Shown in pieces: positions 3,390-48,655 of a stretch of DNA of 64,000 nucleotides (position 1 is its first letter; every line of letters begins with the position of its first letter). The notes beneath the pieces were generated by a model. The model was not told the origin of the DNA. It did no database searches and saw only the letters and a list, made by a program, of their open reading frames with translations. This DNA is from an uncultured Candidatus Saccharibacteria bacterium (GTDB lineage Bacteria; Patescibacteriota; Minisyncoccia; Phycocordibacterales; UBA918). The stretch is taken from positions 79 through 64,078 of the forward strand of contig CAYRMI010000005.1 of the NCBI GenBank assembly GCA_964425625.1, read 5' to 3'. Position numbers and translations under genes: made by a program.

Positions 3390-3965
3390 TTACGTTAGTA
3401 GGTATTTGAAGATGTTATCGACGCCTAAAGCAGCGAAAGTTTGATAGAAAATAGTTCCTAGTAGTAAGGGGACAATAATGCTACGAAATTGGATGCCAAT
3501 AATACCAAGCGGAATGAGGAAAACCTCGTCTGGTAACGGCATGAGAGCAGTGAAGCCAAAAATTAAATAAGGGGCGTATTTCTTTTGATTGTGGTAAAGA
3601 GTGAGGAGTTTCTCTTGTATCTTTGGGTAGTGTGTCTTGGTAATTCCGCTACCATATCGACCGATGCCATAGGAAAGCAAATTAGCTAGCATTGTACCCG
3701 TGACTAGTAGGGTTATGATGGTAAACAGATTCATACCACCGGCAGTAAAGACTGGAACAAAGGTGGCTGCTGGTACTGGAATGAAGAGGTTTAGTCCAGC
3801 AATGAAACTAATGATAAGCACACCGAGATAGCCAAATTCTTGAATGAGTTTTTGGGAGTAGGTGTCATTAGTCACAAATTGAGTCAACCAAAAAGCTAGA
3901 GCAACCACGACAAGAATCAGGATAACAAAAAATGACAGACGAATGGCTTTTGTTTTTCTTGACAT
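3390..3965 (-). CDS. DedA/VTT-family (SNARE-associated-like) integral membrane protein.
   Basis: Multi-TM protein. PLPDEVFLIPLG-like VTT motif. Confidence 0.5.
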   Translation of the reverse strand: MSRKTKAIRLSFFVILILVVVALAFWLTQFVTNDTYSQKLIQEFGYLGVLIISFIAGLNLFIPVPAATFVPVFTAGGMNLFTIITLLVTGTMLANLLSYGIGRYGSGITKTHYPKIQEKLLTLYHNQKKYAPYLIFGFTALMPLPDEVFLIPLGIIGIQFRSIIVPLLLGTIFYQTFAALGVDNIFKYLLT

Positions 3966-4036: not shown

Positions 4037-5422
4037 ATGAAAAAAGTAGACTATTTTCAGGGTAAGAAGGTTACCCTCATGCGGGTAGGACTAATCGGAA
4101 GAGGAATTGGTGACGCAGCTTATATCGCAGAAGCTGGTGGGCAGGTGTTGGTAGTTGATGATGCACCACAAAGTGTGATGCAACCGGCCGTGGATGCTTT
4201 GGCCGAATATCCAAACATCACTTTCAAATTTGGTTCGTACGACTTTGTTGACTTCAAAGAGGCAGACTTGGTGGTAGTAGGAGCAGGCGCTCCTCTTGAG
4301 GAACCGGTCCTCCTTAAGTGTAAAGAGGAGGGAGTGCGACTGGTCCAAAGCGCGGCTCTTTTTGCTGAGCTTTCTCGTGTACCTATCATCGGGGTTACTG
4401 GCACGCGTGGTAAGAGCACCGTGACTCATATGATTCACCATGTCCTATCGTTTGCGACGGGGGAGGAAGTACTACTGGGCGGGAATGTGCGTGGAGTTTC
4501 CAATCTCCAACTACTCAATCATGCCCACGAAGATTCTCTCTGTGTCATGGAGCTAGATAGCTGGCAGTTGCAAGGTTTCGGCTGGGCAGGCATCTCGCCC
4601 CAAATTGCAGTTTTTACCAACTTCATGGATGATCATTTAAATTACTATCAGCGCGGAGGTAAGAGTTATGAAGAGGCGATGGATTTATATTTTCAGGACA
4701 AGGCACAGATCTTTCTCAATCAAGATGATAGTGGAGTTTTTATTACCACCCCCGCGGTGTTTGAACGAGCTAAAAAATTGGCTGGCTCACTCGGGCAAGA
4801 AGTGATTTTGGCGGATGCCTCGGTAATTCCCGACGATTGTCTTTTGTCGATGCCGGGCGAACATAACCGCCTCAACGCTGCTTTGGCCTACGAGGCGCTT
4901 AAGGCCACTGGCCTAAGTGATGAAGAGATTTTTGATGGACTGGCTTCGTTCCCGGGTGTGCCCGGACGGTTGCAGTTAGCGGGGGAGAAAGATGGGGTAC
5001 GAATTTATAATGATAACAACGCTACCACCCCGACGGCTACCGCAACCGGTATCAAAGCGGTCGACAATCCGCCAACTAGCGAGAAAAATGTGATTCTGCT
5101 CATGGGTGGGGCGGACAAGGGACTAGATCTTACAGTACTTCTCCAAGCCATAGCTGAGTCAGTTAAAGCGGTGGTGCTATTACCTGGGACTGGGACAGAT
5201 AGATTTAAAGAAGCCTACGCTGCGAATAGTACGGTTAACCGTACTACAATTACAGAGTGCGCCTCGCTCGAGGAAGGAGTAAAGACCGCGCTCGCCTTAG
5301 GCGAGCGCGGTGACGTCCTCCTGTTCTCTCCCGCCTTTGCTTCCTTTGGTATGTTCAAAAACGAGTACGAACGCAACGATGAGTTTATGAGGGTAATTGA
5401 TACCTATGAAGACGGAGAATGA
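4037..5422 (+). CDS. murD: UDP-N-acetylmuramoyl-L-alanine--D-glutamate ligase (MurD).
   Basis: Mur ligase P-loop GVTGTRGKST. HNRLNAALA, YNDNNATT and LMGGADKG motifs, in MurD order. Confidence 0.8.
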   Translation: MKKVDYFQGKKVTLMRVGLIGRGIGDAAYIAEAGGQVLVVDDAPQSVMQPAVDALAEYPNITFKFGSYDFVDFKEADLVVVGAGAPLEEPVLLKCKEEGVRLVQSAALFAELSRVPIIGVTGTRGKSTVTHMIHHVLSFATGEEVLLGGNVRGVSNLQLLNHAHEDSLCVMELDSWQLQGFGWAGISPQIAVFTNFMDDHLNYYQRGGKSYEEAMDLYFQDKAQIFLNQDDSGVFITTPAVFERAKKLAGSLGQEVILADASVIPDDCLLSMPGEHNRLNAALAYEALKATGLSDEEIFDGLASFPGVPGRLQLAGEKDGVRIYNDNNATTPTATATGIKAVDNPPTSEKNVILLMGGADKGLDLTVLLQAIAESVKAVVLLPGTGTDRFKEAYAANSTVNRTTITECASLEEGVKTALALGERGDVLLFSPAFASFGMFKNEYERNDEFMRVIDTYEDGE

Positions 5423-5424
5423 AA

Positions 5425-6199
5425 TTCTGAGTAAGGTTCGACCTTACTCAGAATGCAAGGAGAAAGATTGAGTAAGGTCGAACCTTACTCAAAAATAGTT
5501 TTGGTTATATAATATTAAGAATGAGTATTCGCATTCATTCCATACCTGATGAGTATTACCATATCTATAATCGCGGGGTTGATAAGAGAGTTATCTTTAA
5601 TGATGTGCATGATTACCAGCGTTTTCTCTTACTTTTGTTATTGTCTAATGATGTGTCTCCTACCAATATTAGTCAATCAATACGTGATTATTCAATACCA
5701 GAGTTAATTTTAAAACCACGGACTCCAATCGTTAAAATATCTTCTTTTTCACTACTTCCCAATCATTATCATCTGCTCGTCTCTCCAGTAATCGATAGAG
5801 GGGTGAGTTTGTTTATGCAAAAAGTTGCCACCGGCTATACGATGTACTTTAACATTAAGGAGGAACGTACAGGTTCTTTGTTTCAGGGGAAATACAAAAT
5901 AAAACATGTGACTGATGACAGGTATCTTAAATACTTATTTGAATATATACACCTTAACCCAATAAGGGAAGAATTTGATACAATACAACCAAGTCAAGTA
6001 AAAACTTTAGTTAGTAAGGCGGAAAGTAATCCTTGGACTAGTTTGTCGGTCTATAGTGGTAGTGAGTCGGGGAGGTTATCTGACGCTGTAATTAATAAGA
6101 CGTTATTTGAAGAATTATTTATTTCCTACCAAAAACACCTACATTCACTTTATGACTGGAAAGCGGATGATTTTGAGTAAGGTCGAACCTTACTCAAAA
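5425..6199 (+). mobile_element. REP-associated tyrosine transposase (RAYT) unit. Two REP-like palindromes lie upstream (5425-5453 and 5468-5492) and one overlaps the stop codon (6171-6199).
   Basis: Three copies of GAGTAAGGT-(T)CGA-ACCTTACTC palindromes bracket the Y1-transposase gene. The unit is inserted between murD and murC. Confidence 0.7.
5521..6180 (+). CDS. IS200/IS605-like Y1 HUH transposase of the RAYT (TnpA-REP) type.
   Basis: YHIYNRG N-terminus, HUH motif PNHYHLLV, GSLFQGKY and YIHLNPIRE. These are the classic RAYT blocks. Confidence 0.75.
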   Translation: MSIRIHSIPDEYYHIYNRGVDKRVIFNDVHDYQRFLLLLLLSNDVSPTNISQSIRDYSIPELILKPRTPIVKISSFSLLPNHYHLLVSPVIDRGVSLFMQKVATGYTMYFNIKEERTGSLFQGKYKIKHVTDDRYLKYLFEYIHLNPIREEFDTIQPSQVKTLVSKAESNPWTSLSVYSGSESGRLSDAVINKTLFEELFISYQKHLHSLYDWKADDFE

Positions 6200-6232: not shown

Positions 6233-7531
6233 ATGAAACTCAGCGATATTAAAAAAATACATTTCATCGGCATTGGGGGGATTGGGATGTCGGCTTTGGC
6301 GCGGTTTTTTTTGCGAGAAAAAAAGACGGTCAGTGGTTCAGATAGAGCTAGCTCACAGATAACCGACGCACTAGAGAAAGAGGGGGTGCAGTTTTTCCCC
6401 GCCCAAGTGAAAGAGAATATCGTCGAAGATATCGATATGGTGGTTTATACCGAAGCGATGGCACATGATCAAGAAGAGATGGTAGCTGCCAAAGCGCTGG
6501 GTGTGCCGATGATGAATTACTTTGAGGCGTTAGGACTGGTGGCCAACGAATACTATTTAATCGCCGTCTCGGGTACCCACGGCAAGACCACTACCACCGC
6601 CATGCTGACGGATGTTTTGGAAGAGGCTGGTCTAGACCCGACGGCTATAATTGGCTCACTGCGCTCCAAGACTGGCAGTAACTTTCGCGGGGGCAAGAGC
6701 AAGTACGCGGTGGTGGAAGCCTGTGAGTACAAGCGAGATTTTTTGCACTTGAGACCAAACGTCTTGGTTATAAATAACCTCGAATTTGAACATGTAGATT
6801 ATTATAAAGACTTGGCGGATGTTCAGGATGCCTTTCATACGATAGCCATGAGTGTGCCAGAAGACGGCTTTATAGTGACTGATTCTAGTAACCCCGCCAT
6901 TGCTCCGGCGCTAGAGGGAGTGGCGGCTAAGGTAATAGACTATCGGAAATTTATTGATCCCACACTCGCTCTACATCTACCCGGTTTTCATAACCGCTTA
7001 AATGCCGCAGCTGCTATGGCGGTAGCTAGTTGCTTGGGGCTAGATACCACAGAGACCAAACAGACGTTAGAAAATTTTGCCGGGACGTGGCGTCGCTTTG
7101 AATACAAAGGGACGTTTGTGAATGAGGGTGGGCGAATCCCGGTTTATGACGATTATGGCCATCATCCCACCGAAATCAAGGCCACTCTAGCCGGAGTAAG
7201 GGAACTTTATCCAAATAGTACTGTGACAGTAGTTTTTCAGTCGCACACCTATACTAGGACACAAGAATTATTTGCTGACTTTGTGACTGCTCTAGCCAAA
7301 GCCGATCAGGTATTTCTTCTACCAATCTACGCTGCGCGCGAGGAAAATCTTTCTGGCGTTAGTAGTGAACAATTAGCCGAAGCCATCCTTAAGACCGGCA
7401 TACCAGCCAAAGTTTTCTTAACTAAAGAAGCAGTCACACTAGCAGTAAAAGAAAATACCACGGCCGGTGGGGTAGTTATCGTGATGGGGGCGGGAGATGT
7501 CACAGAGGTGGCGACCCAGCTTATCTCCTAA
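6233..7531 (+). CDS. murC: UDP-N-acetylmuramate--L-alanine ligase (MurC).
   Basis: HFIGIGGIGMSALARFF N-terminus, SGTHGKTTTT P-loop and HNRLNAAAA. Confidence 0.85.
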   Translation: MKLSDIKKIHFIGIGGIGMSALARFFLREKKTVSGSDRASSQITDALEKEGVQFFPAQVKENIVEDIDMVVYTEAMAHDQEEMVAAKALGVPMMNYFEALGLVANEYYLIAVSGTHGKTTTTAMLTDVLEEAGLDPTAIIGSLRSKTGSNFRGGKSKYAVVEACEYKRDFLHLRPNVLVINNLEFEHVDYYKDLADVQDAFHTIAMSVPEDGFIVTDSSNPAIAPALEGVAAKVIDYRKFIDPTLALHLPGFHNRLNAAAAMAVASCLGLDTTETKQTLENFAGTWRRFEYKGTFVNEGGRIPVYDDYGHHPTEIKATLAGVRELYPNSTVTVVFQSHTYTRTQELFADFVTALAKADQVFLLPIYAAREENLSGVSSEQLAEAILKTGIPAKVFLTKEAVTLAVKENTTAGGVVIVMGAGDVTEVATQLIS

Positions 7532-19634: not shown

Positions 19635-20615
19635 ATGTCAAAGACAATTTTGGTGACGGGCGGGGCGGGGTATATTGGCTCCGCTTGTGTGGCAGAGCTT
19701 CATGAACAGGGTCATAAAGTAGTGGTGTTTGACGACCTCTCCACTGGCCAAAGCACGGTCTTACCCGAGACCGTGCCGGTAGTGGTGGGGGATATTACTG
19801 ACCGCGAAGCTTTACGCCAGGTTTGCCAGCCATACCAGTTTGATACCATCATTCATTGTGCCGCCAAAAAAGCGGTGGGTGAGAGTGAGCTTGATCCGTC
19901 TTTATATTTTTATACTAATGTGGTGGGCTCGCTAAATGTACTCTCGGTGATGGAGGAACTGTCTATACCGCAGATTATTTTTTCTTCTACCGCCGCTGTG
20001 TACGCACCGCCACTTCATACTGAAGCGGTAACCGAGCAGTCGCTCTTGGCACCAGTCAATGTCTATGGCCAGAGCAAGCTTATGGTCGAGCAGATGATAA
20101 GTGACTTTGCTAGACTAGGGAAAATAAAACAGTACACGATTTTCCGCTACTTCAATGTAGCGGGGGACGCTGGCCTCCTATTTCAAGAAAAGAAAGCGCA
20201 AAATGTTTTCCCACTCTTAGCTTCAGCCATTACCTCCGGCCACACCTTCTCTATCTTCGGTGATGATTATGAGACCAAGGACGGGACGGGGGTGCGCGAC
20301 TACATTCACCTTTCCGATATCGTAGAAGCCCACCTAAAGGCGCTAGCGGGGGAGAAAAATGGTACTTTCAATCTTGGGAGTGGCACCGGCTACAGTGTGC
20401 GCGAACTGATTGCTGAATTTGAAGCCGTCTCGGGTCGAAAACTTAAAGCCGAGGTGGCGCCGCACCGCGCCGGCGACCCAGCCTTTTTGGTAGCCGAGTC
20501 TACCCTAGCGAAGCAAAGTCTAAACTGGCAACCAGAAAGCACCTTAAAAGATATGGTAGCAAGTACTTTAGAGGCCTACGCCCCACAGAACGCGCCAAAA
20601 CAGTATAGAGCATGA
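19635..20615 (+). CDS. galE: UDP-glucose 4-epimerase.
   Basis: ILVTGGAGYIGS Rossmann motif, YGQSK catalytic Tyr/Lys, ~326 aa. Confidence 0.8.
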   Translation: MSKTILVTGGAGYIGSACVAELHEQGHKVVVFDDLSTGQSTVLPETVPVVVGDITDREALRQVCQPYQFDTIIHCAAKKAVGESELDPSLYFYTNVVGSLNVLSVMEELSIPQIIFSSTAAVYAPPLHTEAVTEQSLLAPVNVYGQSKLMVEQMISDFARLGKIKQYTIFRYFNVAGDAGLLFQEKKAQNVFPLLASAITSGHTFSIFGDDYETKDGTGVRDYIHLSDIVEAHLKALAGEKNGTFNLGSGTGYSVRELIAEFEAVSGRKLKAEVAPHRAGDPAFLVAESTLAKQSLNWQPESTLKDMVASTLEAYAPQNAPKQYRA

Positions 20616-20730
20616 CTTTTAGTAAATTAACTGTATTTTCCGTCACTCCTCGCGTACTTGCAGATATTGTGTGTTTTGGTATACTAATAACTAAGTCCAT
20701 ACGTTAAGGGATCCGACAGGTGTTAGTGCC

Positions 20731-21252
20731 TTAGGAGCCCTTTTCATTTTTACGTAAATATTCAATGTGAGATTTTTTGTTTAGCAAAAAGTCATAATAT
20801 TCTGAGCCAAGTTTTTTGTACAGAGATGATGCGTATTGTCTATTTGGTAGCAATATTTTAAGAAATCTTTTCTTTTCAATAAGGTATTTAACTACTTTAA
20901 AATAGTCTCCATCTCCGGACACAAGAACAAATTTTTTATCAGCAGACTCTTCAGCAAATTGTCTCATTAATTCAAATACTAAGTCAACATCGACATTGCC
21001 TTTCTTTTTTGAAATAGCATTTTGGTCGTGATCTTTGAAGATAAGAATGTAACCTGCTCTTTGGAATTCTGTATACATTCTTGAATGCTCGGTCTGTAGA
21101 TTACCTATGAATAAATAAATTTCACTACATTGATATTTCTCTTTCAGAAATCGACAGAACTTGTAGTGGTCTACAGTCCAACCATCAGCTTTAGCGCCTA
21201 AATAAAAATTTTGGGAGTCTATGAAAGCGCAATTTTTTAAGTTTTTGTCCAT
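20731..21252 (-). CDS. NYN-domain (LabA-like, PIN-fold) predicted RNase, copy 1.
   Basis: GNVDVDLV and VLVSGDGDY motifs. The C-terminus NEKGS overlaps the conserved hairpin motif. Confidence 0.65.
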   Translation of the reverse strand: MDKNLKNCAFIDSQNFYLGAKADGWTVDHYKFCRFLKEKYQCSEIYLFIGNLQTEHSRMYTEFQRAGYILIFKDHDQNAISKKKGNVDVDLVFELMRQFAEESADKKFVLVSGDGDYFKVVKYLIEKKRFLKILLPNRQYASSLYKKLGSEYYDFLLNKKSHIEYLRKNEKGS

Positions 21253-21286
21253 TTAATATGAATGGTACAATAATTTTTCGATAACT

Positions 21287-21752
21287 AAAAGGGATCTTAA
21301 GGTTGTTAGTGCCTTAGGGACATTTTTCATTTCATGGAGACGTATAACTACCGCATCGTCACTTTCAGTGACAAATCGAGAGCTTTGGCAATCCGGACAA
21401 GTGTCTGCAGGGAAGGATTACCGTCGCCACGTTCCAGGCGAGAGATGACTGGTTGTCGACTACCGATAGCTTCGGCGAGTTCTGTTTGTGACCAACCACG
21501 CTTAGTGCGTTCCTTGATGATAGTTTTAATTACTTCATATTCAGGTCCGAGGGCTTCGTATTCAGATTTTACTAGGGGATTTTTTAGAGTCTTGGCTTTG
21601 AATTGTTTAAAAGAAATAGACATAATTTAAATATAACTTATAAGTTATACTAATGAAAGTTGTTCTTGCCATCTTTACCCGGATAAAAATATTCCTCACC
21701 CTTGCGGGTGAGGTCGCGGGAAAATCCCGAATGTACCTACATGATAGTGTGT
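21287..21752 (-). repeat. ~465-bp repeat copy R1. It contains the hairpin motif, the xre gene and the upstream hairpin CCTCACCC-TTGC-GGGTGAGG.
   Basis: Aligns with 24717-25038. Confidence 0.7.
21348..21623 (-). CDS. XRE-family helix-turn-helix transcriptional regulator (HigA/antitoxin-like).
   Basis: GWSQTELAEAIGSRQPVISRLERG HTH. Confidence 0.7.
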   Translation of the reverse strand: MSISFKQFKAKTLKNPLVKSEYEALGPEYEVIKTIIKERTKRGWSQTELAEAIGSRQPVISRLERGDGNPSLQTLVRIAKALDLSLKVTMR

Positions 21753-21804
21753 GGGACCAAATTAGTCAATAGGAAAGAGTAGAGTCTTATACTCAACAGG
21801 AAGC

Positions 21805-22071
21805 TTGATTGACATATTTTATATTGGTACATATCTATGTTCAAAATTATTACCTTGGTGTATATTAATTGTAATGAGTAATACTAGTTCAAAAATTAGT
21901 GGAGGAAAAATTAGACAAAAAAGAGGAGATACTCTAGTTCGTACAATTGTGAAACAATATAAAGTTGATCTGGGTTATCGTTCCGACACAAAGTTATCTA
22001 CCGTCTTAAAAAAGGAAGGCGCTTCTTCACTGTCAAAACTCATAAAAATGACAGAATCAGCCAAGAAGTAG
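21805..22071 (+). CDS. Small hypothetical protein. It probably starts at the internal Met (MSNTSS...).
   Basis: ORF 10 nt upstream of the next gene. No recognisable family. Confidence 0.3.
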   Translation: MIDIFYIGTYLCSKLLPWCILIVMSNTSSKISGGKIRQKRGDTLVRTIVKQYKVDLGYRSDTKLSTVLKKEGASSLSKLIKMTESAKK

Positions 22072-22080
22072 TAATACTAT

Positions 22081-22563
22081 ATGGCAGGAAATGACTTTGA
22101 TTTTATATCTCCAGTCGCGTTCAGAAAAAATATTATTGAGTCAGTAGAGTTCACTTCTTGGTTGTGGGTTACGGCTCAAAGTATTGAATCAAAATATGTT
22201 GACGACATAAATCGAACTATCATTCTCTATAATATTTCAATTATTGAAGCCCTGCTTCTTTTTAGAGCCAAGAAGAGAAAAATTAAATTTCTGGTTCAAG
22301 AATACAAGAATCCATATAAGCTTCCAGCAGAGTTTAGCAAGGCTAATAAAATAGTTGTATTAGCATTTAGGGAAAGTACACCAAAGTCCGATTCTCAAAT
22401 ATGGCTTAGCGATTTGTTAAAGGAAAAGAGAAATTTTCTCGGTAAAAAACTATATGAACAAATAAAGAACTTCAAGATGTTAGAAATACCCTACATCTCT
22501 CAAAGAGACGTTCCGGACGGTTTACCCTTGAAAAGTCGCAGGAATCTTTTGATTCACTACTAG
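22081..22563 (+). CDS. Hypothetical protein with a C-terminal Rx4H motif (possible HEPN-like).
   Basis: C-terminal SRRNLLIHY. Predicted mostly alpha. Confidence 0.35.
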   Translation: MAGNDFDFISPVAFRKNIIESVEFTSWLWVTAQSIESKYVDDINRTIILYNISIIEALLLFRAKKRKIKFLVQEYKNPYKLPAEFSKANKIVVLAFRESTPKSDSQIWLSDLLKEKRNFLGKKLYEQIKNFKMLEIPYISQRDVPDGLPLKSRRNLLIHY

Positions 22564-22594
22564 CTGTAGTGACCAAAATAAAAAATGACAAGTC

Positions 22595-22918
22595 GTGAGC
22601 AATCATATGAAAACAAAAGCCAGTATTACAATAAAAAATAAGCTATATCCGTACTCACTTGAGAAGACAGCCTCTGGCACTATTCATTTTGTAGCTAAAG
22701 ACGCCGCTATTGATCAAGAGTTTCTGGCTGAAGATCTGGCGGAGATTATTCTTGATTTGCCGAATTTAATTTTGGCTGAACAAGATTATGAGCGAAAACA
22801 GTCAGACGTCATTCGCTTCAGAGTATCTGGAGTAGATAAGGTGCGGATTAAAAAGAAGGCGATTGAGAAAGGGTATGACTCTGTCTCAGGCTACGTGCGT
22901 GATTTGGCGTTGAGCTAA
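22595..22918 (+). CDS. Protein with a C-terminal ribbon-helix-helix (MobC/CopG-like) DNA-binding domain.
   Basis: IRFRVSGVDKVRIKKKAIEKGYDSVSGYVRDLAL matches the RHH pattern. The 3' end is duplicated at 23719-23758. Confidence 0.45.
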   Translation: MSNHMKTKASITIKNKLYPYSLEKTASGTIHFVAKDAAIDQEFLAEDLAEIILDLPNLILAEQDYERKQSDVIRFRVSGVDKVRIKKKAIEKGYDSVSGYVRDLALS

Positions 22919-23063
22919 CTTGTGCCCAAATGGACAGACGATTGATAATTAGCACGTCACTACCTTCAATAACAAATCAAGGGTTTAATCAATTTATTTC
23001 AACCAGAAATACCACTTTCTTGGGACGGTATTTTCTAAAATTTGTTGATATACTTACTGCGAT

Positions 23064-23594
23064 ATGAAGAATAATATCGCATATATAGATGGTCAGAATC
23101 TTTTCATGGGAACCACTAAACGTGAACCCTTTTGGAAAGTTGATTTGTCTAAGTTGCGAGTTTACTTAGAAAGGAAATACAATGTTACTAAGGCGTACTA
23201 CTATCTAGGCTATGTCCAGGATGGGGGTAAGTTTGAATCATTATATGAAGAAATACAAAGCGCGGGTTTCATTCTTGTATTTCGAGAGCATAATTCCGCA
23301 ATGCTTGGTAAAAAGAAGGGCAATGTAGATTCAGATATTATCTTTTCAATTATGAAACGACTGTATCGTAGAGAAGAATTCGATAAAGTCGTATTAGTAT
23401 CGGGTGACGGTGACTATAAAATGTTGGTAGACTTTTTGATTGAAGAGGGTAAATTAGAGAAAGTTTTGTTTCCAAAAAGAAAATACGCATCTTCACTTTA
23501 TAAATCAATTGGAGCAACCTATTACGCTGACTTGTCGGAAGACGATACAAGAAAAAAGATAGCTGTAAATGAAAAGGGGTCCTTAGGTAGTTAG
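23064..23594 (+). CDS. NYN-domain (LabA-like, PIN-fold) predicted RNase, copy 2. A diverged paralogue of 20731..21252.
   Basis: GNVDSDIIF and VLVSGDGDY. Co-linear with copy 1. The C-terminus NEKGS is followed by the same hairpin motif. Confidence 0.65.
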   Translation: MKNNIAYIDGQNLFMGTTKREPFWKVDLSKLRVYLERKYNVTKAYYYLGYVQDGGKFESLYEEIQSAGFILVFREHNSAMLGKKKGNVDSDIIFSIMKRLYRREEFDKVVLVSGDGDYKMLVDFLIEEGKLEKVLFPKRKYASSLYKSIGATYYADLSEDDTRKKIAVNEKGSLGS

Positions 23595-23718
23595 CCGTTC
23601 GGAACCCTTTTCGTCGTGATTTGTTGATTATATCAAGTTCGGGTAATAAATCAAGTTTCTGATACCAAAGTTCAATAATTAATTGCAACACATAAGTAAT
23701 AAGGTCCGGATGAAAAAG

Positions 23719-23758
23719 CTATGACTCTGTTTCAGGCTACGTGCGTGATTTGGCGTTG
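23719..23758 (+). repeat. ~40-bp copy of the 3' end of the RHH gene (22873-22912).
   Basis: CTATGACTCTGT(T/C)TCAGGCTACGTGCGTGATTTGGCGTTG at both places. Confidence 0.7.
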
Positions 23759-23784
23759 CGGTAAGATTTGGATGCAAATACCCT

Positions 23785-23843
23785 AAAGAATATGGTACGA
23801 GAGTACCCTAGAGGCTTATACCCCACAGAATGCGCCAAAATAG
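23785..23843 (+). pseudogene. Degenerate copy of the galE 3' terminus (20547-20603).
   Basis: AAAGA(A/T)ATGGTA...TAGAGGC(C/T)TA(C/T)(G/A)CCCCACAGAA(C/T)GCGCCAAAA(C/T)AG. About 85 percent identity. Confidence 0.65.
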
Positions 23844-23900
23844 CCCCAGAAGAGGCCTTTTAACGAAAAATTAGGTTTGCTACTTGAGGTATAGAAAACA

Positions 23901-24683
23901 CTAATTTACAGCCTGTTTGAGCTTCAACCATAATCGGTAGAGAGAATACTTAAGCCAAGCTTCTATGTACTTGGGGTAGGAGGACTGATGCAGTTTTATA
24001 ATTTTGAGCACCTCTTCAATCAGGGACAGCCTCCTGCTACTTTCACTAATATTATGGACCCGATAGGCGACATGATAGCTTGGTAAATTGGCCAGAGTAC
24101 CAACGGTACCCAGTTGCATAAATAAGTCTAAGTCTTCCGAGAGCGGGAAACGATAACCCGGAATAGTTTTGAGCAAAGCCGTGCGCATAAGGACACTGGA
24201 GTGGGCAAATTGATTGCGTAGGAGGAAATTGTTTCTAATATCTTTGTCGGTTACGTTATAAGTAGTCTGCTTTATCTCTTTACCGGTTTCATTGATGAGA
24301 GTGATAAAAGTACCCACCACCGCACAGTCCGGGTGTTCTTCCATAAAAGTCACTTGCTGTTGGAGTTTATCTTTACTGGTCCAGCTGTCATCACTATCGA
24401 GGACAGCGACAAATTCTCCCGTTGCCTGCGCGAAACTTTCTCTCCGGCGTACCAATAAGCCGAGGTTGGTCGGTTCTTTAATATATTTAATACGTGAGTC
24501 ATTGAAATCGCCAACCACACTAGCAGTGTCATCAGTCGAACCGTCATCAATGATAATCAATTCAAAATTACTATAGGTCTGCGCCAAGACACTAGCTATC
24601 GCCTCACCAATAAAATGCGCTCGGTTGTAGGTGAGCATGAGGATACTGACAAGTGGGGAGGGGGAATTACTTGGCATAGTCAT
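23901..24683 (-). CDS. Family 2 glycosyltransferase (GT-A).
   Basis: VSILMLTYNRAHFIGEAIASVLAQTY...ELIIIDDGSTDDT and a DSDD motif. Confidence 0.8.
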   Translation of the reverse strand: MTMPSNSPSPLVSILMLTYNRAHFIGEAIASVLAQTYSNFELIIIDDGSTDDTASVVGDFNDSRIKYIKEPTNLGLLVRRRESFAQATGEFVAVLDSDDSWTSKDKLQQQVTFMEEHPDCAVVGTFITLINETGKEIKQTTYNVTDKDIRNNFLLRNQFAHSSVLMRTALLKTIPGYRFPLSEDLDLFMQLGTVGTLANLPSYHVAYRVHNISESSRRLSLIEEVLKIIKLHQSSYPKYIEAWLKYSLYRLWLKLKQAVN

Positions 24684-24716
24684 ACTAATATACTACTATA
24701 GAAATGACTTCATACG

Positions 24717-25038
24717 AAAAGGGATCCGAAATGTGTCGGTGCCTTAGGAGCCTTTTTCATTTCTAGCGGATGTATAACTACCGATTTGTCACTTTCAGTG
24801 ACAAATCGAGGGCTTCGTACTCAGATTTTACCAACGGATTTTTTAGAGCCTTGGCTTTGAATTTCTTGAAAGAAGTGGTCATAAGTTAAATATGACTTAT
24901 AAGTTGTATCAACGCAAGTTTTTCGTTGTTGTCTTGGCAACGATAAGTTCTTGGCTTTTTCTTAACTCTGTAAGTAAAAATATTCCCCACCCTGACTGGT
25001 GGGGTCGCGGGAAAATCTCGAATGTACTTACATAATAA
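24717..25038 (-). repeat. Repeat copy R2. Same module as R1, with a ~170-bp internal deletion that reduces the xre gene to a fragment.
   Basis: 24767-24813 matches 21341-21385 and 24814-24892 matches 21553-21623. The hairpin CCCCACCC-TGAC-TGGTGGGG carries compensatory changes. Confidence 0.7.
24767..24910 (-). pseudogene. xre HTH regulator pseudogene with an internal deletion.
   Basis: The N- and C-terminal coding parts of the 21348..21623 homologue are joined. Confidence 0.6.
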
Positions 25039-25172
25039 AGCGTATGATTAAATACGTCCATAGATATAGAGACATGAGGTGTGATAAAATAGTTTTACAA
25101 ACGCCTTCGGGCTTGCCCTCTTGCAAGAGAGGGACAACAAATAAAAGCGTTAGAGACAAGTCTCTAACGCTT

Positions 25173-26039
25173 TTATTTTGGCAATTGAATCCAGTCAGTT
25201 GGGATTAAGTCCTTGTCGTATGGTTGGGATTCAAACCAAGGAGTTGGGGCGATTACTACCTTACTCGGATTTTGGTTGAGCCAAGCACTCCACCAACTAA
25301 AAGAGCTGTTGGCGATGATATTGTGTTGGCACATACTCATCAGTATCAGATCTTCAACATCAGTCATGCCTTCACCTTTGACAAACACCGCGCTATCGCC
25401 CACTGGTAAATTTTCCTTTACCCAGGGGAGGTCATCGGAAAAGACGAAGTAAGTAGGAGAGGGTACCGTCTTTTCTATTTCCGCCATGGCGGCTTCATAG
25501 TAACTAAGGGTACATGGACCAAATTCTTTTTGCACTTGCGGGTTTTTTATATAGTCGCCCCGTCTCACATGTAGAGCTACTGCTTGAGAGTTTTTAATCA
25601 ACTCGGCAAAAGTCGCCCCAGCCTTTGAGAGAGGTTTGGCTAAAGTGAATTCTTTAAGCAGGGTATCGCGAATATCAGCAAAGTATAGTGGTGACTGCCA
25701 ATACCCATCAAGATAAATATCGCCAACGAAGCCGAGGACTTGGGGGTTAAATAGCGTATTTTTATCGCGTGATAATTTGAAACGCAAAAAGCGCCAAGCT
25801 TTGGAGAAAATTCCGTAAGGGTACTTAAGCCTTTTTATTTCTTCTGGCGTGGCAATAGTTTTGACCACATTAAGGCTATCGAGCGCAAACGGGCGGTAAA
25901 TATCACCGACCATATTGGCTCGTGCTAATCCGGTTACATCAAGTTTGATAACGTCGTTATTTTTTAGCGCCAGCTTTCGCCCGAGCGCATATTGGAAGAG
26001 CTGGTTGCCCGTTCCGCCTTTGAGATTGACTATGATCAT
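25173..26039 (-). CDS. GT11-family alpha-1,2-fucosyltransferase-like glycosyltransferase.
   Basis: IIVNLKGGTGNQLFQYA N-terminal motif. HVRRGDY. Confidence 0.7.
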   Translation of the reverse strand: MIIVNLKGGTGNQLFQYALGRKLALKNNDVIKLDVTGLARANMVGDIYRPFALDSLNVVKTIATPEEIKRLKYPYGIFSKAWRFLRFKLSRDKNTLFNPQVLGFVGDIYLDGYWQSPLYFADIRDTLLKEFTLAKPLSKAGATFAELIKNSQAVALHVRRGDYIKNPQVQKEFGPCTLSYYEAAMAEIEKTVPSPTYFVFSDDLPWVKENLPVGDSAVFVKGEGMTDVEDLILMSMCQHNIIANSSFSWWSAWLNQNPSKVVIAPTPWFESQPYDKDLIPTDWIQLPK

Positions 26040-47233: not shown

Positions 47234-48439
47234 CTACTTGGTACTGGCCGGAATAGTACAGTGGGGGAGGGTGTTGTTGGGGGTGATGGTGTGCGTGGTA
47301 GCTTCAGGGTAGAGTTTGCGGAAGGTAGTGAAAGTGGCATCCGGCTTGCCGTACTTTACCTCATAAGCATCAATTATATGGCCGTGGGTGCGCACAAAAT
47401 CTATTTCTAGTTTAGTCGAAGTACGCCAGAAATAGGTCCTAGGAGGAAGTGATTCTAGTGTGTCAATTTTAAGAAATTCGGTATAGATGAGGGACTCAAA
47501 GTTTTTTCCCAGTGCGCTATGGTTGTTGCTCTCGGGAATGGCGGTCAGGGCGTTCATAACGCCATTATCAAGGAAGTAGATTTTGTAGGCTTTCTTTAAT
47601 TCCTTGGTGTAATTTCTGGCAAACGAATATACGCGTTTGATTACAAACGCTTGTTCAAGTAGACGAATATAGTTCTCTACGGTCGCTGGCGAAACTCCAA
47701 TGGCTTTGGCTAGGCTACTGGTATTGACCGTGCTTCCGACTCTGGTGGCAAGATGGGTCACTAGGTCTTCAAAGTTTTTGGGGTTACGTAGTGCCTCAAA
47801 AGTGAATACGTCCTTGTAGAGATAGTTGGTGGCAATTCTTTTGATTTCAGCTTCTTTTTCTTCTGGTGTACTCACCGCCACCACTGCCGGATAAGTACCA
47901 AAGCGAAGAAGATTGGTAAATAATTCTGGGGTAAGAGTAAGAGTGTCAGAAATTTCAGCCAGAGAGAGCGGGTAGAGCATAAACTCATCGGCTCGCCCAG
48001 TGAGAGGTTCTCTAATTTCGTTAGCCAAGTCAAAAGAGCTGGAGCCGGTGGCGATAATTTTAATTTCCGGGTAGGTATCATGAAAGAGTTTAAGTATCTT
48101 GCCGATGTTGGAGATGGTTTGAGCTTCATCGAAAGCGACGAGGGTTCGTTCTCCGATGAGGTTTTTTAGGGGCTTGGTATCTCCCAGTTTGAAGGCTCGG
48201 CGCACATCATTTTGCTCACAGTTAAAATATGCATCAGTGTGTCCGAGGTCCTTTAGCAGGGTTTTGACGAGAGTAGTTTTACCAGCTTGGCGGGGGCCAA
48301 GAATTACAATCAAACCTTGATGGTTGATCCGTTTTAGAATTTGCTCCGCTATTCTACGTTTAAAAATAAGCATATAATTGCATTTCTGATAATTTGTAAG
48401 TATATATAGTAAATTATCACAAAATCTGACAATTTGCAA
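47234..48439 (-). CDS. AAA-family ATPase with a DUF4143 C-terminal domain (COG1373-like). The true start is probably at 48373.
   Basis: Walker A LGPRQAGKTTL. Walker B VAFDEAQ. Confidence 0.65.
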   Translation of the reverse strand: MQIVRFCDNLLYILTNYQKCNYMLIFKRRIAEQILKRINHQGLIVILGPRQAGKTTLVKTLLKDLGHTDAYFNCEQNDVRRAFKLGDTKPLKNLIGERTLVAFDEAQTISNIGKILKLFHDTYPEIKIIATGSSSFDLANEIREPLTGRADEFMLYPLSLAEISDTLTLTPELFTNLLRFGTYPAVVAVSTPEEKEAEIKRIATNYLYKDVFTFEALRNPKNFEDLVTHLATRVGSTVNTSSLAKAIGVSPATVENYIRLLEQAFVIKRVYSFARNYTKELKKAYKIYFLDNGVMNALTAIPESNNHSALGKNFESLIYTEFLKIDTLESLPPRTYFWRTSTKLEIDFVRTHGHIIDAYEVKYGKPDATFTTFRKLYPEATTHTITPNNTLPHCTIPASTK

Positions 48440-48572
48440 GGTAAAAGGGGTAGTCTAGCTGACTTTTTCAGCTATTTAGGCTAATTTTAAAATTTTGCAC
48501 CGCTGATACAAAGCTCTATTTAAGGTTATAATCTTGTTTCTGATAATTTGTAAGTATACATAGTAAATTGTC
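48384..48572. promoter_or_regulatory. Two copies of a 37-bp direct repeat (48384-48419 and 48536-48572) upstream of the ATPase gene. Putative operator/promoter elements.
   Basis: TTTCTGATAATTTGTAAGTATA(T/C)ATAGTAAATT(A/G)TCA. Confidence 0.4.
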
Positions 48573-48655
48573 ATTAATTAGCAGGTTTTAGTTTTTTCAG
48601 CCTTATTCAAATTAACGGTTATGATACAGGGTCGCTTTTATCGCAGTGGTGAGTT

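Follow-up and report, generated by a model that had tools for sequence, protein, structure and literature searches.

Toxin-antitoxin loci that pair a PIN-fold toxin with a ribbon-helix-helix (RHH) or helix-turn-helix (HTH) antitoxin, as in VapBC, follow a well-known pattern, and the toxins of type I systems are usually small membrane peptides. In the type I locus par/Fst, the two transcripts converge on a common bidirectional terminator (PMC7472228). A different kind of selfish behaviour is known from restriction-modification genes, which insert with long target duplications, from more than 30 bp to about 420 bp, in the absence of any mobility gene (PMC2853133). For the NYN.COG1432 proteins, nuclease activity has not been demonstrated (PMC5499597).

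The window analysed here is a 64,000-nucleotide stretch of DNA from an uncultured Candidatus Saccharibacteria bacterium, in which two NYN genes lie around the junction between galE and a convergent GT2 glycosyltransferase gene. Comparing this locus with related sequences, we favour, at a probability of roughly 55%, a reading in which the NYN gene and a small antisense RNA (sRNA) together form a selfish module resembling a toxin-antitoxin system whose antitoxin is an RNA, situated at a convergent galE/GT2 glycosylation-operon junction.

The NYN genes and their predicted antisense sRNA

NYN1 (20731-21252, minus strand; Pfam NYN, E = 6.9e-14) encodes a predicted LabA-like NYN (PIN-fold) nuclease of 173 aa, and NYN2 (23064-23594, plus strand; Pfam NYN, E = 2.4e-17) is its paralogue on the opposite strand, as the initial annotation had recognised; the two proteins are 41% identical. 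Twenty relatives all carry the acidic motifs D9, N87-x-D89 and G-D115-G-D117 without variation. We found 3829 relatives of NYN1, and its orthologues, at 71-86% identity, sit between GT11 and GT2 genes in three related contigs (L100-L102). The relatives of NYN2 are proteins 65-88% identical that occur in variable genomic contexts; conservation of this degree is atypical of fast-evolving toxins and also fits a housekeeping RNase. Searches of the phage and plasmid collections yielded no NYN homologue.

The conserved partner of the NYN gene is a predicted gene for a convergent antisense sRNA of ~57 nt, which overlaps the NYN 3' end. A TTGnnn-N16-18-TAnnnT promoter was identified on the strand opposite NYN in 64 of 67 distinct loci, compared with a mean of 4 in shuffled controls, and it ends 6 nt upstream of a conserved leader, AUyAAGACGA. 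All copies share a 12-bp stem, an internal loop and an apical helix of 2-3 bp followed by a U-run, with a mean fold energy of -18.7 kcal/mol. In the alignment, 94% of cells pair and seven pairs exhibit two-sided changes; the covariation score and the percentage of paired cells were reached by none of 500 shuffles, the pair-count measures were reached by 9-10 of 500, and the structure outscored every slid register. The covariance model used for sRNA matches, R1, found one match per NYN gene across 75 sources, while no Rfam match was obtained. The position of the element is unaffected by where the NYN stop codon falls, and the sRNA persists with a NYN protein of 53% identity on a Bacteroidota conjugative element. 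The sRNA strand is favoured weakly by the asymmetry of G-U over A-C combinations (49 versus 30, p = 0.04, with cells that are not independent). The hairpin would double as a plain bidirectional terminator.

Within the window, the sRNA2 gene (23566-23654, minus strand; R1 78.2 bits, E = 2.5e-17) has a -35 element TTGATT at 23654-23649 and a -10 element TATAAT at 23632-23627, and its predicted RNA (about 23620-23566) has the 12-bp stem, conserved loop and U-run, with a fold energy of -16.5 kcal/mol. NYN1-type copies have an identical layout. For sRNA-A (20658-20751, plus strand; R1 27.1 bits, E = 2e-4), the -35 TTGCAG (20658-20663) and -10 TATACT (20680-20685) precede a predicted RNA at about 20694-20751 whose hairpin and U-run overlap the last codons of NYN1, and promoter, leader and hairpin are all kept in the orthologous loci L100-L103.

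Orphan sRNA copies left after loss of NYN comprise two in the window and one elsewhere (L089). Stub B (21245-21335, plus strand), an sRNA-like hairpin between the XRE gene and NYN1, contains a 44-nt copy of the NYN1 3' end (21289-21332, self-blastn) and a promoter-like site (TTGTCC, 21245-21250; TACAAT, 21266-21271); it matches R1 weakly (9.5 bits). In L101 (51 bits) and L102 (48 bits), a homologous stub lies upstream of the NYN1 orthologue. The second, sRNA-C (24671-24764, plus strand; R1 32.6 bits, E = 8.6e-6), has a -35 TTGGCA (24671-24676), a -10 TACTAT (24694-24699) and a predicted RNA at about 24707-24764, with the GT2 start codon falling in its promoter spacer. It is a hybrid, stub B-like on the XRE side and sRNA-A-like on the GT2 side, and was left behind at a site where NYN1 formerly sat.

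The strongest competing reading, which we consider doubtful, gives NYN a housekeeping role in Patescibacteria as an RNA-processing nuclease, takes the hairpin for no more than a bidirectional terminator with a cis-antisense regulator, and ascribes the repeats to ordinary rearrangement in a variable polysaccharide locus instead of to selfish mobility. Such a role would suit the conservation of the protein across many lineages, the A- and U-tracts that flank the hairpin on both sides, and the gene neighbourhoods that tie NYN domains to tRNA and rRNA processing (PMC5499597). However, synteny would then be expected, yet NYN neighbours differ at nearly every locus; two NYN paralogues and two orphan sRNA copies occur within 5 kb, the unit is flanked by duplicated 3' ends of target genes, and NYN homologues reside in a conjugative element. 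Nor would a plain terminator need a dedicated conserved promoter, leader or loop.

Insertion of the unit and target duplication

The NYN2 module (22919-23697, plus strand), made up of a promoter, NYN2 and the convergent sRNA2 gene, is sandwiched between two copies of the 3' end of an RHH-like gene. The last 66 nt of that gene (22853-22918) recur as a displaced relic at 23698-23764 on the plus strand, 83.8% identical over 68 nt (self-blastn, E = 6.2e-11) and sharing the stop-codon end. Clean duplications of this kind also occur at L025 and L030, where 45-68 aa from the C-terminus of the adjoining gene reappear beyond the module, in agreement with the initial proposal that insertion regenerates the 3' end of its target. 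Overall, flanking direct repeats are enriched at NYN modules, with 12 of 51 having them compared with 6 of the 91 control genes (p = 0.007); some of the flanking repeats (L037, L105-L107) are copies of a lineage-specific REP-like repeat beside a Y1 transposase and not target duplications. The unit spans about 660-800 bp (580-910 bp in other loci) and is found in both orientations relative to its target, and target duplications range from 33 to 430 nt. The empty site, whose existence had been proposed as a check, is found in L102, in which 15 nt separate the convergent galE and GT2 genes.

This insertion with long target duplication is the pattern shared with restriction-modification genes. Comparison among loci shows that the unit moves whole, inserting at or near gene 3' ends with a long target duplication and leaving the host gene intact, with a decaying 3' relic on the opposite side. 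By the same comparison, NYN2 and sRNA2 inserted into the 3' end of RHH and duplicated 66 nt.

Since target duplications recur around a unit that has no other mobility gene, NYN might instead be a DNA nuclease of an autonomous element, akin to a homing endonuclease or transposase, whose staggered breaks give rise to long duplications and whose hairpin is a recognition or recombination site. DNA flap nucleases are among the PIN-like folds, and sRNA-C resembles a recombination product of the two hairpins bordering NYN1. We nevertheless regard this as unlikely, given the spread in duplication length, targets without common sequence, both orientations, and the failure to find terminal repeats of the unit; we know of no NYN-family DNA transposase, and the antisense promoter would be left without explanation.

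Genes neighbouring the NYN units

The genes adjacent to the NYN units had been proposed as their antitoxin partners. An XRE-family HTH gene of 91 aa (21348-21623, minus strand), identified as such from the outset, matches Pfam HTH_3 (E = 1.3e-17). The RHH-like gene (22607-22918, plus strand) does match a NikA-like RHH model in Pfam, as the first reading of the sequence suggested, but below threshold (22.3 bits where the cut-off is 27; E = 1.5e-4). If these were two type II pairs, each DNA-binding protein would neutralise a PIN-like toxin and autoregulate the operon, and the adjacent, co-directional XRE-NYN1 and RHH-NYN2 arrangements fit, as do the matches of XRE to HipB, MqsA and HigA-type antitoxin models, all below cut-off. 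We find this pairing very improbable and largely refuted, because XRE and RHH do not co-occur with NYN. Using phmmer, no homologues of XRE, RHH, orf65 or the HEPN-fold protein were found in 80 loci of NYN2 relatives, whose neighbours are heterogeneous; neither partner occurs at the NYN1 orthologous loci (XRE is absent from L100-L102), XRE is absent beside NYN homologues at the other loci compared, and no RHH homologue adjoins NYN or HEPN-fold genes there. RHH served as the insertion target, not as part of an operon with NYN2, and its junction with NYN2 is a scar of insertion, with 145 nt between the genes and a second copy of the RHH 3' end beyond NYN2. The 95-nt XRE-NYN1 gap holds stub B, and the XRE-plus-stub junction occurs without NYN at sRNA-C. 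XRE and RHH appear to be neighbours through insertion history and not NYN antitoxins.

Two further ORFs lie upstream of RHH. The small orf65 (21874-22071, plus strand) has no Pfam match, and in L104-L110 its homologues (63 aa; E = 1e-23 to 1e-28) always stand before a HEPN-fold gene. The HEPN-fold gene of the window (22081-22598, plus strand) is a frameshifted pseudogene: the ORF reads from 22081 to 22563, and the true C-terminus lies out of frame at 22473-22598 with RNTLH, an instance of the conserved family motif RNTxH. The Rx4H tail noted earlier for this 160-aa ORF results from a -1 frameshift.

Architecture and history of the locus

The intact galE gene (19635-20615, plus strand; Pfam Epimerase, E = 2.5e-55), of the UDP-glucose 4-epimerase family, has a 73% identical counterpart in a Paceibacteria MAG, where upstream gene order is conserved as well. 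Its last ~80 nt (20541-20621) recur as a displaced, frameshifted relic at 23780-23862 on the plus strand (74.7% over 83 nt, E = 8.8e-9, self-blastn), which follows the RHH relic after 15 nt and lies 38 nt from the stop of GT2 (23901-24683, minus strand; Pfam Glycos_transf_2, E = 1.9e-33). This relic marks the ancestral galE/GT2 junction. Both 3'-end repeats of the initial annotation were real; the bounds drawn from them were incomplete, as the system reaches 25063 and includes GT2. Additional collinear repeats pair 20682-20752 with 24694-24765, 21284-21385 with 24714-24815, and 21548-21772 with 24807-25063 (71% over 257 nt, E = 3.7e-37; all self-blastn), and together reveal a decayed copy of XRE and the NYN end past GT2 (24694-25063), collinear with 20541-21772.

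We interpret the apparent island as a ~2-kb insert, segment J (21773-23779), which begins with orf65 and also carries the frameshifted HEPN gene, RHH and NYN2, inside a decayed long duplication that runs from the 3' end of galE past XRE into its upstream region. This upstream region (21624-21772), which closes the left copy on the right, contains two hairpins, and the pairing of one (21693-21712) is preserved in the other copy by compensatory change. GT2 is kept solely in the right copy, collinear with the NYN end and GT2 of L100-L102. Also in the right copy are an XRE pseudogene, with about 162 nt deleted, and its upstream region (24766-25063, minus strand), and the pseudogene occupies the site where these related genomes, with the order GT11-NYN1-GT2, carry the NYN1 orthologue. 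Separate assemblies of the runs SRR13355620, SRR13355621 and SRR13355622 all show the same arrangement, which makes an assembly artefact, raised at the outset as a possible explanation, unlikely.

Judged by these comparisons, NYN1 and sRNA-A, with XRE, lay originally between GT11 and GT2, where a relic persists, and the ~2-kb segment carrying RHH received NYN2 later. The galE events, seen in one genome, could reflect either one insertion event that duplicated ~2 kb, or two successive insertions, the first bringing a copy of the XRE-NYN1 unit into galE. Integron-like or other integrase-mobilised cassettes, with hairpins or gene 3' ends as att sites and a recombinase encoded elsewhere, would regenerate target 3' ends in the manner of tRNA-integrating elements and place an attC-like hairpin at each NYN ORF 3' end, but this is the least probable account: no integrase or transposase ORF occurs within 20.5-25.2 kb (ORFs and Pfam), an absence already noted, the repeats derive from the target and vary by locus and widely in length, and the hairpin has an RNA-gene-type promoter and U-run.

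A model for the NYN-sRNA module

In the selfish-module reading, an extended -10 promoter ~10 nt from the ATG (about 11 nt upstream in NYN2) would give a nearly leaderless NYN mRNA, and the sRNA would be transcribed from its own sigma-70-type promoter, with its terminator hairpin overlapping the NYN transcript at its 3' end. As in par/Fst, the pair is convergent with overlap in the terminator region; unlike the usual small membrane peptides of type I systems, NYN is a 175-aa enzyme, which counts against the toxin reading. Most likely, the protein acts as an RNase, either as a toxin or as an effector, and is held in check by the cis-antisense sRNA. This could occur, as in par/Fst, by pairing of the sRNA within the terminator region that it shares with the NYN mRNA, or through direct protein binding as in type III systems, an option considered because the loop and 5' leader are conserved in sequence. 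A par-like translation block is unsupported, because the cognate sRNA pairs with the NYN translation start no better than shuffled sequences (-14.5 versus -15.7 kcal/mol), with no extra complementarity.

Collectively, the two-part unit of NYN and antisense sRNA is apparently undescribed, and it is widespread in Patescibacteria; in the genome studied here, such selfish modules would have accumulated where the galE operon runs into the GT2 operon.

A predicted convergent small RNA gene accompanies NYN genes

Pfam searches confirmed both LabA-like NYN (PIN-fold) genes recognised in the initial annotation, minus-strand NYN1 (20731-21252, E 6.9e-14) and plus-strand NYN2 (23064-23594, E 2.4e-17). 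The two proteins share 41% identity and are related to the LabA-like structure 2qip and, consistent with a PIN-like fold, residues D9, D89, D115 and D117 are invariant among NYN relatives. Few PIN-like proteins are as abundant as the LabA-type NYN proteins (COG1432, DUF88), which have no assigned function (PMC5499597). The NYN2 family is very large, with 2549 matches, the best 120 of which are 67-99% identical to NYN2; its named relatives belong to Nomurabacteria, Paceibacteria, Minisyncoccota and similar groups. A search of NCBIfam returned nothing specific, and a search for known defence systems with PADLOC gave only a weak NYN match (E 9e-6) and generic HTH matches.

We fetched 80 metagenomic loci of NYN2 relatives for neighbourhood comparison, and in every one of them a conserved element of ~50 nt is found at the NYN 3' end, independent of the position of the stop codon. 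On the opposite strand this element reads as a complete small gene, comprising TTGACa, a spacer of 16-18 nt, TAnAAT and, 6 nt further on, the leader AUyAAGACGA, followed by a covarying 12-bp stem (GGGUUCC/GGAGCCC, GAGUUCC/GGAGCUC, GGGGCCC/GGCCCCC, GAAGC/GCUUC) that encloses a sequence-conserved loop (GAACGGyUAAyUrCCUAA) and ends in a U-run. Of 67 distinct loci, 64 had the promoter, where shuffled sequences averaged 4, and all copies of this predicted sRNA share one fold (mean -18.7 kcal/mol). The model-fitted alignment has 94% paired cells and seven pairs with changes on both sides, and the unfitted MAFFT alignment has 90.6% paired cells; the covariation score was reached by none of 500 shuffles, and every slid register was worse. 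Counts of G-U against A-C, tried as an indicator of the strand of the hairpin and rejected, showed only a weak bias to the sRNA strand.

A covariance model built on the element found one sRNA copy per NYN gene across 75 sources. Within the window it located sRNA2 at 23565-23621 on the minus strand (78 bits), sRNA-C at 24707-24764 (33 bits) and sRNA-A at 20694-20751 (27 bits), both on the plus strand, and gave a weak score to a stub, stub B, at 21280-21334. Rfam, searched with cmscan over 20400-25300 at E up to 10, returned two chance-level matches, none of them on the sRNA copies, and no description of a NYN-antisense RNA module was found in the literature. The same layout of promoter, leader and hairpin recurs in NYN1-type copies at four relative loci (L100-L103), and a NYN protein of 53% identity on a Bacteroidota conjugative element also has the sRNA. 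One-to-one association of NYN with the predicted sRNA holds over more than 70 loci and at protein identities as low as ~50%. The hairpin and U-run lie across the NYN 3' end, which makes the sRNA a predicted cis-antisense RNA with a promoter of its own, as in type I systems; the NYN proteins, in contrast, are soluble enzymes of 165-185 aa rather than the small hydrophobic peptides of type I toxins. An extended -10 box lies ~10 nt before the NYN ATG, so that the NYN mRNA appears nearly leaderless, which explains the compactness of the unit (580-910 bp between flanking repeats).

Some loci exhibit variations of this arrangement. In L088 a single NYN gene is followed by two sRNA copies in tandem (6528-6584 and 6636-6692), and in L089 an orphan sRNA (7434-7489) lies ~900 nt from the NYN gene, so that duplication of the sRNA gene and its survival alone are both possible. 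In L041, the NYN2-family gene (673-1197) has an in-frame stop at about codon 32 and the sRNA is intact (75 bits), which could be decay of the toxin with the antitoxin kept, or stop-codon recoding. The Bacteroidota homologue, in a metagenome-assembled genome (L113, 1293-5992), sits with its sRNA inside a conjugative or mobilisable element, between the genes for a TraG-like coupling protein and two relaxases, with a NikA/MobC-like protein also encoded nearby. At 21245-21275 of the window, the stub's -10 box TACAAT (plus strand) and a -10-like TACCAT of NYN1 (minus strand) overlap in the palindrome-like ATGGTACAAT. These overlapping boxes are conserved in three genomes, namely that of the window and those of L101 and L102, where they lie upstream of the NYN1 orthologues, and such an overlap at ATGGTACAAT could couple the predicted promoters of the stub and NYN1.

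The adjoining XRE and RHH genes are not conserved partners of NYN

The genes preceding NYN1 and NYN2 had been proposed to encode DNA-binding antitoxins. The XRE HTH gene (21348-21623, minus strand) was identified by Pfam (E 1.3e-17). For the RHH gene (22607-22918, plus strand) a NikA-like match was obtained, but it is sub-threshold and is the sole basis of the assignment. When the window proteins were compared by phmmer with all ORFs of the 80 loci, no XRE or RHH homologue was found beside NYN, and homologues of orf65 and of the HEPN-fold gene, which also lie in the window, were likewise absent from these loci. NYN neighbours vary from locus to locus: in Pfam scans, the nearest same-strand ORF upstream of NYN was DUF1294, Peptidase_S24, a Type ISP fragment, Y1_Tnp or nothing, and the NYN1 orthologues in L100-L102 are without XRE. 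Nor are the genes tightly coupled in the window, the XRE-NYN1 gap being 95 nt with an sRNA stub inside it, and the RHH-NYN2 gap of 145 nt being an insertion junction.

VapBC systems share with the NYN genes a PIN-fold nuclease with conserved acidic residues, and RHH and HTH genes happen to adjoin NYN in the window; in contrast to VapBC, no protein antitoxin is conserved with NYN at any other locus examined. On the phmmer comparison, neighbour lists and Pfam scans of upstream ORFs we reject a type II pairing of NYN with XRE or RHH, and with it the antitoxin model for both. Calls of toxin-antitoxin (TA) systems from adjacency alone are risky in annotation, as the RHH-NYN2 adjacency is itself an insertion scar.

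Target duplications around the NYN-sRNA unit

The suggestion that insertion had regenerated the 3' end of the target gene was supported, and it extends beyond the window. Among 57 loci with enough flank, 17 had one or more repeats (20-430 nt, 60-100% identity) with matching copies on the two sides of the NYN-sRNA unit, and in about nine of those 17 tight direct repeats flank it. In a controlled test, flanking repeats were more frequent at NYN modules (12 of 51 distinct ones) than at control genes matched for size (6 of 91; p = 0.007). Two cases are clean. In L030, a second copy of the last ~68 aa of a 564-aa gene, whose C-terminal sequence we take to resemble a histidine-kinase ATPase domain, lies beyond the unit (72% identity). 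In L025, the final 45 aa of a 189-aa gene recur, ending at an equivalent C-terminus (76% identity). The stop codon of the target forms one edge of the repeat in L025 and L030 as well as in RHH and galE of the window. The unit is found in both orientations relative to the target, and the repeats measure 66 nt (RHH) and 83 nt (galE) in the window, 130 nt in L025, ~290 nt in L030, 60 nt in L028 and 115 nt in L033.

As had been noted, no integrase is present in the region; moreover, the junction repeats differ between loci and have no common core, and an integron cassette or integrase island is accordingly very unlikely. Gene insertions of restriction-modification systems are the closer precedent, with repeats from >30 bp to ~420 bp, often over gene 3' ends, and no mobility gene (Furuta, Abe and Kobayashi 2010, PMC2853133). 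The NYN-sRNA insertions share these features, with target-derived direct repeats >30 bp, an insert <20 kb and neither transposase nor integrase, and both would be selfish nuclease units. They differ in cargo, which here is a NYN nuclease and an sRNA rather than a restriction enzyme and methyltransferase, in their Patescibacteria hosts, and in the outer duplication described below, which may reach ~2 kb. Exact-protein look-ups of NYN1, galE and GT2 for strain-level empty sites recovered only the same arrangement, from three runs.

Repeats in L037 and L105-L107 were not counted as target duplications, being a lineage-specific TTGTCCCTGTCCC repeat beside a Y1 transposase. In L105 it stands between successive cassettes, an AbiE pair, an orf63-HEPN pair and a NYN module (1318-1362, 3553-3598 and 4609-4654), and in L037 beside an IS200-like Y1 transposase (1595-1607 and 2473-2542). 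This repeat, of which the window has no copy, resembles a lineage-specific REP/RAYT system.

Duplication and history of the galE-GT2 locus

Self-comparison of the window recovered both repeats of the initial annotation: the final ~80 nt of galE (20541-20621) have a second copy at 23780-23862 (74.7% over 83 nt, E 8.8e-9), and the final 66 nt of RHH (22853-22918) have one at 23698-23764 (83.8%, E 6.2e-11), this RHH relic ending 15 nt ahead of the galE relic. Gene order is identical in three separately assembled runs, which makes an assembly artefact unlikely. The bounds first drawn for the island proved too narrow, since the repeat system, although real, is larger. On the same strand, the NYN1 3' end and downstream sequence (20682-20752) match 24694-24765 (81%), the stub and XRE 3' end (21284-21385) match 24714-24815 (80%), and the XRE 5' part with its upstream region (21548-21772) matches 24807-25063 (E 3.7e-37); a 44-nt stub copy of the NYN1 3' end (21289-21332) lies between XRE and NYN1. 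With the galE match, these four outer matches are collinear on one strand and define a left copy (20541-21772) and a right copy (23780-25063). Each component of this long duplication is intact in exactly one copy and a relic in the other. On the left, the galE 3' end and XRE are intact, and NYN1 is found there alone; on the right, XRE has a 162-nt deletion, and GT2, a glycosyltransferase gene, is present on this side only.

Several further structures were seen here. Two adjacent hairpins lie upstream of XRE at 21693-21727 and in the copy at 24984-25018, the first pairing in both through compensatory change (CCTCACC/GGTGAGG and CCCCACC/GGTGGGG); Rfam gave just a chance-level CRISPR-DR57 match to them (E 1.8). 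A second glycosyltransferase gene, GT11, carries at its 3' end a near-perfect palindrome of 40 nt (25139-25178, 95%), which is probably the GT11 terminator and whose flank recurs in L101. Elsewhere, the window contains a 30-nt inverted repeat (93%; 5425-5454 and 6170-6199) around a 219-aa ORF (5521-6180) and direct repeat pairs of 53 nt (48367-48419 and 48521-48573) and 38 nt (2484-2521 and 2954-2991).

The related loci bear on how this arrangement arose. Orthologues of NYN1 (71-86% identical) lie between GT11 and GT2 in L100, L101 and L102, in the exact place of the window's relic copy C, and sRNA-C and GT2 of the window are collinear with the NYN end and GT2 of these loci. In L101 and L102 a NYN2-type hairpin stub lies upstream of NYN1, like stub B in the window. 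Copy C is a hybrid, stub B-like on its XRE side and sRNA-A-like on its GT2 side, as would be expected had recombination between the two hairpins flanking NYN1 removed that gene. With a Candidatus Paceibacteria metagenome-assembled genome the window shares upstream synteny and 73% identity in galE, which places its organism in the Patescibacteria (CPR). In L102, galE and GT2 are convergent and 15 nt apart, probably the junction in its empty state; at ~65% nucleotide identity, and with another galE C-terminus, this locus is too diverged for the repeat to be aligned. A HicA/HicB pair occupies, in L101 (5849-6430), the convergent junction that holds galE and the island in the window, and this junction is therefore a hot spot, a recurrent landing site.

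Two histories fit these data. In the first, segment J (21773-23779), carrying orf65, the HEPN-fold gene and RHH, inserted with a target duplication of ~2 kb; the left copy then lost GT2 and, reciprocally, the right copy lost NYN1 and XRE. The similar divergence of the outer repeat pairs (71-84%) fits a single event. Local alignment of the galE-to-sRNA-A spacer with GT2, run to tell this history from the second, was not significant, 185 of 300 shuffles scoring as high, and its likeness to the GT2 5' end of L102 is limited to ~25 nt around the sRNA-A -35. In the second history, a copy of the XRE-stub-NYN1-sRNA-A stretch entered galE at the 3' end, duplicating 83 nt, and J arrived later at the edge of this stretch. 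Under both, NYN2 with sRNA2 (22919-23697) is a later insertion into RHH, whose repeat is younger (about 84-90%) than the outer repeats (71-84%).

A separate, inactivated HEPN-fold cassette

The 160-aa ORF of segment J (22081-22563) had been noted for an Rx4H motif at its end, but the in-frame RNLLIH is the product of a -1 frameshift. Its homologues are 170-174 aa, and the window copy departs from them after residue ~132; the lost C-terminus is encoded in another frame (22473-22598) and is 88% identical to that of an intact homologue, P0243. As the out-of-frame tail is still this similar, inactivation is recent. The frameshift (22465-22598) is present in all three metagenome assemblies. By sequence the family had no Pfam or PDB match and was identified as HEPN by fold comparison only, the model of P0243 predicting a four-helix up-down bundle (pLDDT 84, pTM 0.77). 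The family motif is R/K-N-T-x-H-L, an Rx3H, which is out of frame in the window.

The HEPN-fold gene is always preceded by a 63-aa gene. In L104-L110 (e.g. L105, 3797-4522) this cassette encodes the 63-aa protein and a 172-aa HEPN-fold protein without a Pfam family, and its neighbours include type I/IIG restriction-modification, AbiEii, GmrSD, an EcoRI-like methylase and Fic. The pair is thus a separate candidate TA or defence pair, inactivated in the window. HEPN-MNT toxins (e.g. SO_3166, PDB 5yep) are its nearest likeness, as these too form two-gene cassettes in defence islands. However, the partner here is a 63-aa protein of unknown family rather than an MNT nucleotidyltransferase, the motif R-N-T-x-H is one residue shorter than Rx4-6H, and the window copy is frameshifted.

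Relation to known RNA-antitoxin systems

In the par system (Fst/RNA II), one of the type I systems with a 3'-overlapping antisense RNA, the toxin mRNA and an antitoxin RNA of ~60 nt are convergent, have their own promoters and end in a common bidirectional terminator hairpin (PMC7472228). The NYN unit shares the convergent transcripts, separate promoters and joint bidirectional terminator, as predicted from sequence, and is similarly compact, self-contained and set in variable genomic contexts. It differs in that the NYN protein is a 175-aa soluble PIN-fold nuclease and the par-type toxin a membrane peptide <60 aa, in that the NYN mRNA appears nearly leaderless, and in that the sRNA is without a second complementarity to the translation start, where duplex energies were no better than those of shuffled controls. 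Moreover, pure cis-antisense pairing does not need the sequence conservation that the sRNA shows in its loop and 5' leader.

In SymE/SymR and RalR/RalA, a nucleic-acid enzyme toxin is under the control of a small antisense RNA, as is proposed for the NYN unit. The antisense RNA of these type I systems, however, lies over the 5' region or coding start, their regulation includes Hfq or SOS control, and the toxins have other folds. We know of no reported link between these systems and long target duplication. Type III systems (ToxIN, AvcID) also combine an RNA antitoxin with an enzymatic protein toxin, and the conserved surface of the sRNA suggests that it may likewise bind the protein directly. 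Type III antitoxin genes, however, precede the toxin gene on its own strand, usually in the form of tandem repeats that the toxin processes and with a terminator in between, whereas the NYN sRNA is a single unit, convergent, downstream and over the 3' end of the gene, tandem copies being found in L088 only.

Interpretation and significance

Our interpretation is that NYN would be a toxic RNase restrained by the sRNA, and that the two together would behave as a selfish unit. The sequence features and covariation of the sRNA gene, its one-to-one association with NYN, the lack of a protein partner, the variable contexts, the duplications of target 3' ends, the orphan sRNAs and the intact catalytic residues are established in the sequences compared here. 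Several points weigh against this reading, namely the missing extra pairing of the sRNA with the translation start, the weak strand asymmetry of the hairpin, the high conservation of the NYN protein, the fact that no activity is known for this NYN clade (PMC5499597), and the absence of NYN matches from phage and plasmid collections (IMG/VR, INPHARED and PLSDB). To the furthest-reaching reading we give about a one in three chance, namely that LabA-type NYN genes with a convergent sRNA of ~57 nt constitute a new and widespread RNA-antitoxin TA or selfish family, thousands strong, chiefly from Patescibacteria but with a member on a conjugative element of Bacteroidota, that spreads without a recombinase by long target duplication into gene 3' ends, where NYN may make the driving breaks.

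The novelty lies in the NYN-sRNA unit itself, among RNA-antitoxin TA systems or selfish modules. With a conserved, dedicated sRNA partner, a large clade of LabA-type NYN proteins gains a hypothesis that is concrete and can be tested, and insertion with long target duplication bears on a mechanism that has been unexplained since its description for restriction-modification systems. If our interpretation is true, a PIN-fold enzymatic toxin would be added to the RNA-antitoxin systems, and the unit would be the first well-defined candidate selfish module of the Patescibacteria, whose small genomes are thought to be poor in such elements.
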